This document shows positions 36,392 through 38,348 of a DNA stretch of 38,348 nt, piece by piece (position 1 is the stretch's first letter; each line of letters begins with the position of its first letter). The notes beneath the pieces are model-generated. The model was not told where the DNA came from. It worked only from the letters and a program-made list of their open reading frames with translations, and made no database searches. The stretch is taken from the IMG/VR virus record IMGVR_UViG_2609459797_000003. The stretch is one strand, 5' to 3'. Source of the DNA: a virus (Duplodnaviria > Heunggongvirae > Uroviricota > Caudoviricetes). A program made the translations under genes and the position numbers.

Positions 36392-36956
36392 CATCCGGCG
36401 CGGTGCTGGTATCTGTTACCGTCACCGCGTCAATGTAATCCAGCACGGCGTTAAGTCGGGTTGTTTCTGCCTGAGTCAGCTTCCGTCCGGCCTGTAATTT
36501 CAGTTGAATCAGACTGATGGAAGCCATTGCAGCATCAATCAGCGACTGGCGCTGTGCTTCTGCTGCGTCTACTGCGGCACTATGCTGTGCCTCAGTATCT
36601 GTCACCCATTTCTCACCATCCCATTTATCGTATGGCGTTAACGGTGAAAGCGTGACATAACCGTCTTTGATGGCACCGATATAATCCACTGTAACAGCTG
36701 CGCCATTTTCGATTGAGTAAACAGTCTCATTGCGGTGGTCTTCTTCATGGCGCCATCCCTTACCCGTAAATACTGCCACTTTCCCCGGAATGTATTCGCC
36801 CGGGTCAATACCAGTGGAACAGGCGGGCATACTTACGCCAGTATTAATATATTCATCAGACCAGCCCGTATACTCAGATGTTTCAGCATCATAATAAAAA
36901 CAACGCATATCGCCCGGCACTGTAGCCAGCCCATTTTCATCAAAAACAGGTTTCAT
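36363..36956 (-). CDS. alternate tail fibre assembly protein (Tfa', inverted orientation)
   Basis: 197 aa; C-terminal 'LNAVLDYIDAVTVTDTSTAPDVIWPELP' matches the same Tfa motif; convergent with and overlapping tfa by ~29 nt, as in Mu G / e14 P segments. Confidence 0.75.
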   Translation of the reverse strand: MKPVFDENGLATVPGDMRCFYYDAETSEYTGWSDEYINTGVSMPACSTGIDPGEYIPGKVAVFTGKGWRHEEDHRNETVYSIENGAAVTVDYIGAIKDGYVTLSPLTPYDKWDGEKWVTDTEAQHSAAVDAAEAQRQSLIDAAMASISLIQLKLQAGRKLTQAETTRLNAVLDYIDAVTVTDTSTAPDVIWPELPEA

Positions 36957-37389
36957 TATTTAGCCCTCACCAGAAAGTTAAATGCAATATTTCGCGGTCT
37001 GACAGCAACAAAATTCACACCATCACCCACAGAGTTACTGGTGAAATTAAATCGTGAAAATCCTGGCTGATTTCCGGCGATGCCATCATGAAAGTTAATT
37101 GCGTGTCCCGCACCTCCGCCTATATTCCCGGCAAACTGAGAAAAGTTTGTAGCTTCCTGCCAGCTTAATAATTCGCGACCACCATCGGCACCTCGCCCGT
37201 CATCCCAGATACGAATGAAATCACCGCGGGCTTCAGGTAATACCAGTGAAGGAAACACTTTCGCCAGCACAGGGTAATCAGAGGCAGAAAATTTCGCCCC
37301 GTTGAACTTCAAAAACACCATACTGGACCAGCTGTCGATTACAGTATTTGGCATTGCAGCGGACGGCCAGAAGAACGGAACGCCAATAG
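36956..37389 (-). pseudogene. alternate tail-fibre variable exon, 5'-truncated by IS5
   Basis: Minus-strand frame upstream of Tfa' encodes a fibre-tip-like Gly-rich region; the frame runs without its own start into the IS5 terminal repeat at 37390. Confidence 0.6.
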
Positions 37390-38348
37390 GGAAGGTGCGA
37401 ACAAGTTCCTGATATGAGATCATCATATTCATCCGGAGCGCATCCAAGAGGGACATCATGAGCCATCAACTCACCTTCGCCGATAGTGAATTCAGCACTA
37501 AGCGCCGTCAGACCCGAAAAGAGATTTTCCTCTCCCGCATGGAGCAGATTCTGCCATGGCAGAATATGACCGCTGTCATCGAGCCGTTTTATCCCAAGGC
37601 GGGCAATGGCCGACGGCCCTATCCGCTGGAGACCATGCTGCGTATTCACTGCATGCAGCATTGGTACAACCTGAGCGACGGTGCCATGGAAGATGCCCTG
37701 TACGAAATCGCCTCCATGCGCCTGTTTGCCCGATTATCCCTGGATAGCGCCCTGCCGGACCGCACCACCATCATGAATTTCCGCCACCTGCTGGAGCAGC
37801 ATCAACTGGCCCGCCAATTGTTCAAGACCATCAATCGCTGGCTGGCCGAAGCAGGCGTCATGATGACTCAAGGCACCTTGGTCGATGCCACCATCATTGA
37901 GGCACCCAGCTCGACCAAGAACAAAGAGCAGCAACGCGATCCGGAGATGCATCAGACCAAGAAAGGCAATCAGTGGCACTTTGGCATGAAGGCCCACATT
38001 GGTGTCGATGCCAAGAGTGGCCTGACCCACAGCCTAGTCACCACCGCGGCCAACGAGCATGACCTCAATCAGCTGGGTAATCTGCTTCATGGAGAGGAGC
38101 AATTTGTCTCAGCCGATGCCGGCTACCAAGGAGCGCCACAGCGCGAGGAGCTGGCCGAGGTGGATGTGGACTGGCTGATCGCCGAGCGTCCCGGCAAGGT
38201 AAAAACCTTGAAGCAGCATCCGCGCAAGAACAAAACGGCCATCAACATCGAATATATGAAAGCCAGCATCCGTGCCAAGGTGGAGCACCCGTTTCGCATC
38301 ATCAAGCGGCAGTTCGGCTTCGTGAAAGCCAGATACAAGGGGCTGCTG
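37390..38348 (+). mobile_element. IS5 insertion sequence (left end and most of transposase; continues beyond window)
   Basis: Begins 'GGAAGGTGCGAACAAGTTCCTGATATGAGATCATCAT...', the IS5 terminal inverted repeat as I recall it, followed by the transposase ORF. Confidence 0.9.
37458..38348 (+). CDS. insH: IS5 transposase InsH (3'-partial, runs off window)
   Basis: Translation '[90 protein letters not shown]...' is near-identical to IS5 InsH from memory; open to the window end. Confidence 0.9.

Follow-up and report, generated by a model that had tools for sequence, protein, structure and literature searches.

Site-specific inversion by recombinases of the Din family (Hin, Gin, Cin and Pin) requires two crossover sites in inverted orientation. 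The serine invertase gene (pin, gin, cin, or hin) adjoins such a segment and also contains the recombinational enhancer. The G segment of Mu and the C segment of P1, the Min multiple inversion of p15B, and the exchange of cassettes at crossover sites have reportedly been treated by Sandmeier and Iida. The described system closest to the present locus is the P segment of e14 in E. coli K-12, a Din-family segment in which stfP-tfaP faces tfaE-stfE and pinE encodes the invertase. In PMC12529663, the e14 segment is given as 1,797 bp long, and Pin enzymes of other prophages are stated to act in trans on segments of the e14 type. Here we describe a segment of this kind near the right end of the window, by which we mean the whole stretch of 38,348 nucleotides that was analysed. 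We conclude that the source genome very probably underwent an IS-bordered deletion that removed the second crossover site together with the invertase gene, as opposed to the IS having interrupted continuous DNA.

The locus belongs to a prophage of ~36 kb that is e14/SfV-like, resides at thrW, and carries a baseplate and fibre module of the Mu/e14/SfV type. At its 5' end, the window contains proA and the tRNA-Thr gene thrW with the attL core (1369-1454, plus strand; ARAGORN calls tRNA-Thr(cgt) at 1369-1444), followed by an integrase and a complete phage gene set, and the RefSeq annotation of relatives uses the e14 names ymfQ and stfP. At 100% identity, the window matches the end of the NCBI draft contig JNND01000006.1 (assembly GCA_000700525.1), which stops 2 nt past the window end, within the IS; hence, as an earlier note on this DNA had pointed out, only one end of the IS is present. 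Compared with the closest complete genome (L001, strain 2022CK-00450), the stretch spanning the tail tube and baseplate genes (27192-35175) contains 164 mismatches, and the fibre and switch region (35176-37389) a single one, at 36752. This sharp mosaic boundary near the end of ymfQ suggests recombination between related prophages.

The fibre module opens with an expressed tail-fibre gene of 245 aa (35215-35952, plus strand; Pfam Gp53-like_C, E 2e-8), in which the crossover site links a constant N-terminal part, reaching to ~35505, with a C-terminal cassette of the gp53-like kind. Residues 1-100 match PHROG tail-fibre families (E 4e-58), and 98 of the N-terminal 99 aa are identical to those of the fibre in the intact module of E. 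coli UTAK-14 (L004). The chaperone of the expressed cassette, Tfa, follows on the same strand (145 aa, 35954-36391; Pfam Caudo_TAP, E 1e-27) and is annotated 'tail fiber assembly protein' in L001, while the intact chaperone of the silent cassette, Tfa', lies on the minus strand (197 aa, 36363-36956; Pfam Caudo_TAP, E 1e-26; PHROG 105 tail fiber assembly, E 5e-84). The convergent 3' ends of the two chaperone genes overlap by 29 bp on opposite strands (36363-36391), and the same overlap was seen in all relatives examined, for example at 5061-5089 of L004. Beyond Tfa' stands the silent alternate fibre C-terminal exon (36956-37389, minus strand), consisting of 143 codons, a stop, and 2 nt of the next codon. 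The exon matches PHROG tail fibre and tail collar fibre families (E 2e-49 and 9e-41), and 140 of its 143 residues are identical to residues 106-248 of the L004 fibre after inversion in silico, which bears out the earlier assignment of this minus-strand frame as a fibre C-terminal exon. The accompanying description of the exon as truncated was partly right, in that the residues GEGSPA and the crossover site are lost, but it overstated the damage, as 143 of ~149 variable residues remain. A 167-aa ORF at 36956-37459, predicted by some gene callers, is a chimera that takes its first 24 codons from the IS and has no fibre N-terminal domain; nothing suggests that it has a function. Overall, a constant N-terminus is followed by an exon and Tfa on the plus strand and by Tfa' and the alternate exon on the minus strand, giving the two opposed C-terminal exon/tfa cassettes of a Din-family segment in the e14 P-segment layout; the note, too, had read the locus as an invertible segment.

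In the intact module of UTAK-14, the silent exon measures 462 bp, pinE starts 62 bp past it, and the arms of the inverted repeat lie at 4300-4319 and 6097-6116. Both crossover sites have a 12+2+12 structure, the left one reading CTCTCGAAAACC TT GGTTTGGGAGAA and the right one TTCTCCCAAACC AA CGTTTATGAAAA, and in-silico inversion from core to core produces an in-frame fibre of 248 aa. The native order, read from L004, L008, and L012, is exon, right site (pixR), pinE, a GIY-YIG gene, a spacer of ~570 bp, and an AraC-family gene. In the window, a site scan combined with alignment to relatives located a left crossover site of the pixL type at 35492-35517 (26 bp, CTCTCGAAAACC TT GGATTAACCAAC). Whereas intact relatives have two inverted 26-bp sites as the bounds of the segment, this is the single such site in the window: no other 26-mer in 35200-37400 scores like the real sites, and a stricter scan of the whole window yielded no second one. 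A tblastn search of the window with PinE from L004 gave no significant match to a PinE homolog.

The inner half of the window's left site scores 5/10 against the consensus. We considered that the site had decayed and rejected this, as the same inner half-site bounds the cassette in all five contexts in which it occurs, two of them with an invertase (L013 and L014), and as its partner in L014 is a canonical right site. Because this half-site is typical of the gp53-like cassette, the left site of the window is probably competent. The gp53-like cassette is rare, occurring in 7 of 5,426 complete E. coli genomes. Exon and Tfa together occupy 35504-36391 in the window, 3485-4388 in L013, ~3490-4391 in L014, and ~3500-4392 in L015 and L016. 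The cassette starts exactly at the crossover core (TTGG) in five fibre genes with four outer half-sites, and its five contexts are one of the e14/SfV type, one of the P2 type, two DUF2612-associated fibres, and a silent copy beside an invertase. This silent copy is found in L013, while L014 holds an apparently intact invertible segment of the P2 type; two of the five contexts have no invertase nearby. To us, the pattern looks like cassette exchange at invertase sites.

On the right, the module runs into an IS at 37390-38348 (plus strand), of which the window holds the first 959 of ~1,196 nt, as recognised from its terminal repeat, Pfam matches, and nucleotide identity. The left terminal repeat, GGAAGGTGCGAACAAG (16 nt, 37390-37405), has the ~16-nt length and the form GGAAGGTGCGAAYAAG of the family, and it begins within the minus-strand alternate exon preceding Tfa', exactly where the earlier note had placed an IS5-type repeat; the right terminal repeat, CTTATTTGCACCTTCC, is visible in relatives, the window ending before it. 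The transposase ORF (37458-38348, 297 codons present) matches Pfam DDE_Tnp_1 (E 1e-31) and DUF772 (E 3e-21), and these domains together with the nucleotide identity to an annotated ISKpn26 identify a DDE transposase of the IS5 type. The element is not IS5 itself, as the note had it, but its close relative ISKpn26, with 98.4% identity over the 959 nt to an ISKpn26 copy versus 94.3% to IS5 proper, and RefSeq labels it 'IS5-like element ISKpn26 family transposase'. In E. coli genomes, a junction query that includes the IS end matches at as many as 43 places per genome. The window copy differs at 5-15 positions from other copies, so the lineages are not identical. Seven substitutions within 154 nt (37760-37913) and one at 38255 distinguish it from the copies in three complete genomes, most of them being common to the metagenome contig L009 and to L034-L043; the sequences suggest patchy gene conversion among ISKpn26 copies. 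By alignment, the IS end corresponds to position 6087/6088 of L004, 9 bp before the right arm, and the comparison thus upholds the view that the IS end lies within the invertible segment, 9 bp from the right crossover site.

Because contig JNND01000006.1 ends in the IS, the source assembly does not allow the rightward extension that the note had asked for, and we infer the right flank of the source genome from relatives, with which it would be shared. The exact left junction was found in 3 of 5,426 complete E. coli genomes, in metagenome contigs, and in further NCBI assemblies; a junction scan of species-representative genomes and IMG/VR gave no matches. In ten other sequences with this left junction, the right side can be read as well (L001, L002, L006, L009, L034, L037, L038, L039, L041, and L043), and in each of them the IS, 1,195-1,196 bp long, is followed by TTAGCCTAGTTATG (the TTAGCCTAG flank), with an AraC-family gene 253 bp further on. 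In none of the ten do the rest of the exon, the crossover site pixR, or pinE lie beyond the IS, and the AraC-family gene stands in the place of an adjacent serine invertase gene. The uninterrupted right context in L007 and L008 reads GCAGCTAT running directly into TTAGCCTAG. Comparing the native order in uninterrupted relatives with that in junction-bearing ones, we find that the IS replaces 2,051 bp, comprising pixR, pinE, the GIY-YIG gene, and the spacer. The attL core, the 56-nt 3' part of thrW at 1399-1454, recurs as attR in L001, L006, L007, and L008, ~1.5 kb rightward of the IS position, and the deletion would hence be internal to the prophage; a deletion that took attR with it and stranded the prophage was rejected on account of this repeat. 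One human-gut metagenome contig (L010) has the left junction and then, after ~980 nt of IS, unrelated sequence (from ~1134 on). It is either a chimeric assembly at the repeat or the result of a further rearrangement, and it was left out of the interpretation of the right flank.

The immediate flanks of the IS carry a second signal. In every relative with both IS ends, the 4-bp flanks are ATAG on one side versus TTAG on the other, the exon-side ATAG departing from the YTAR consensus at its first base, and none of these relatives shows a 4-bp target duplication at a YTAR target. At three unrelated chromosomal sites, from which the duplication length of ISKpn26 was measured in genomes, the element has perfect duplications (TTAG, CTAA, and TTAG). 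The missing duplication is therefore attributed to deletion at this copy and is no argument against the identity of the IS. A true IS5 is present in strain ES9 (L012, at 5101), where it occupies a second TTAG, 11 bp upstream of the TTAG of ISKpn26 (L008 4987-5004); that both elements had used the same TTAG was considered and discarded. Given this true IS5 at a second TTAG, the spacer upstream of the AraC-family gene is a repeated target of the IS5 family.

Searching from the right side separated two classes of loci. We used as probe a small RefSeq-annotated ORF that runs from the right end of the IS into the AraC flank, which recovered at least 24 contigs, and 13 of these were fetched. The right junction was identical in all 13, and the 11 with the left side present fell into two classes; the look-up of the junction ORF returned other assemblies and none from GCA_000700525.1. 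Class A is the type of the window, with the left end ...CCAATAG abutting the IS, and has the same orientation as the window in every locus long enough to show it. In class B (L032, L035, L036, L040, and L042), the left end is ...CAGGGGGATTTAA, and alignment with L004 puts this endpoint ~85-90 bp rightward of that of class A, within the spacer that directly precedes the pinE start codon. Class B retains a canonical right crossover site ~55 nt to the left of the IS, whereas class A has the left site only. Class B loci have no pinE, keep the left site as well where the locus reaches it (L035 and L040), and differ in the cassette at the expressed position, which encodes a collar-type 248-aa fibre in L035 and a gp53-like one in L040. 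Even with pinE gone, inversion of the class B segment in trans, or recombination, may have continued. The sequence of the IS copies was discarded as a means of linking the two classes, as copies differ by 2-17 nt regardless of class, two of them with indels. Three strains, 2022CK-00450, N9, and 81, have the junction of the window and have decayed further: the first has an internal stop in ymfQ (L001 8428-9012), a gene that is intact in the window (34627-35211), the second has an IS1 within the silent exon (L002 8109-8806), and the third has an IS1 and has lost most of the prophage (L006 10967-11664).

We propose that the ancestor had a Pin-type segment with two opposed exon/chaperone cassettes, two 26-bp sites, and pinE beside the right site, and that an IS-associated deletion of ~2,051 bp then took away the last six variable codons, the right site, pinE, the GIY-YIG gene, and the ~570 bp spacer, such that the exon would now be joined to a point 253 bp upstream of the AraC-family gene of the same prophage. 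The junction, the identity of its parts, the single remaining site, and the lack of an invertase are seen in the window itself, while the right flank of the IS and the size of the deletion are read in the relatives. The earlier note had placed the rest of the exon, the second site, and the invertase beyond the element, as in a simple insertion, which would leave them intact and ATAG duplicated. In that case, ATAG-CTGGAGAAC, the right crossover site, and pinE would come next after the right end of the IS, and the segment could still invert, yielding a fibre interrupted by the IS. The right side of the window's own genome is out of sight behind the contig end, its IS is slightly different from other copies, and, had the ATAG insertion preceded the deletion, the source could be a pre-deletion intermediate, all of which lends this view some credit. 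It is nevertheless very improbable, given the AraC flank in 10 of 10 other left-junction sequences with a readable right side, the unlike ATAG and TTAG flanks, the absence of an IS-ATAG-CTGGAGAACC junction from 5,426 complete E. coli genomes, species-representative genomes, and IMG/VR, and the fact that ATAG is not a consensus target of the IS5 family. Least credible of all is an assembly artefact in which the parts were joined chimerically at the repeat, since, even though the window forms the final 38.3 kb of a draft contig ending in a multicopy IS, the identical junction recurs in three closed genomes, several NCBI assemblies, and metagenome contigs of independent projects.

As to the route of the deletion, homologous recombination between two direct copies of ISKpn26, one at the ATAG of the exon and one at the TTAG near the AraC-family gene, is conceivable though rather unlikely. 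Differing flanks of the ATAG/TTAG kind are the classic signature of such an exchange, and ISKpn26 is multicopy in many E. coli genomes; yet class B would need another independent insertion and recombination, where one anchored IS accounts for both classes, and neither of the single-insertion intermediates was found. One fixed right junction with two nested left endpoints points instead to an anchored IS with one-sided deletions, in which a single ISKpn26 would have sat at the AraC-side TTAG and leftward deletions from it would have generated classes A and B. The progenitor junction would then read GCAGCTATTTAG followed by GGAAGGTGCG; such a progenitor, in which an ISKpn26 at the AraC-side TTAG would still have intact DNA on either side, was not found. 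As no simple-insertion progenitor turned up at either site, the deletion route is something that we infer, one-sided deletions beside an anchored IS being, from the pattern of junctions, the most likely.

Left with a single site and lacking an invertase, the segment cannot invert, and a Pin-family enzyme supplied in trans by another prophage would not change this. The gp53-like cassette is consequently the one on which the fibre is fixed, while the collar-type exon and Tfa' are permanently silent. The truncated fibre that had been predicted for the inverted orientation thus falls away, as there is no such orientation to be reached, while the suggestion of a locked segment and of prophage decay agrees with the single site and missing invertase. 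In terms of host range, the switch would be fixed on the gp53-like fibre. We regard the locus as a case of ordinary prophage decay. The elements, the process, and the e14 P-segment system are well known, and the junction itself is known as well, being already present and annotated in public genomes. The significance beyond annotation is accordingly small, with the silent collar-type exon and Tfa' as dead cargo. We think it quite improbable that E. coli lineages were repeatedly selected for loss of inversion and that the nested deletions of classes A and B arose in this way, as opposed to by neutral decay. If this were true, a particular fixed fibre or chimeric product might, for example, benefit the host, and a benefit of this sort has reportedly been seen for PinQ and StfE2 in e14. 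For genome scans, it is useful to bear in mind that where a contig ends in an IS, the element may border a deletion rather than merely interrupt the sequence; comparing both flanks in closed relatives resolves which of the two is present. Furthermore, classes A (site lost) and B (site kept) are possible natural controls for Pin inversion acting in trans.

Compared with known systems, the IS agrees with IS5 and ISKpn26 in its 16-nt terminal repeat, in a transposase with DDE_Tnp_1 and DUF772, and in a length of 1,195-1,196 bp. Ordinary copies show a YTAR target preference and a 4-bp duplication, whereas the copy at this junction has no duplication (ATAG/TTAG) and borders what we read as a deletion. 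With the Mu G, P1 C, and p15B Min systems, the locus has in common that the gp53-like cassette starts at the crossover core, the pattern expected of cassette exchange; unlike p15B Min, the window has no multiple-inversion array and instead a two-cassette segment with one boundary lost. The nearest likeness is to the e14 P segment. The gene order is the same, the names are partly shared in RefSeq (ymfQ and stfP), two convergent tfa genes and a silent fibre exon are found here too, and in the intact relatives of the window, pinE adjoins a segment of ~1.8 kb that is bounded by 26-bp sites (12-bp halves flanking a 2-bp core). The window locus differs from e14 in that the right site and the invertase have given way to an IS, and in that its expressed cassette is the rare gp53-like one; moreover, its prophage resides at thrW and looks full-length, whereas e14 is cryptic.
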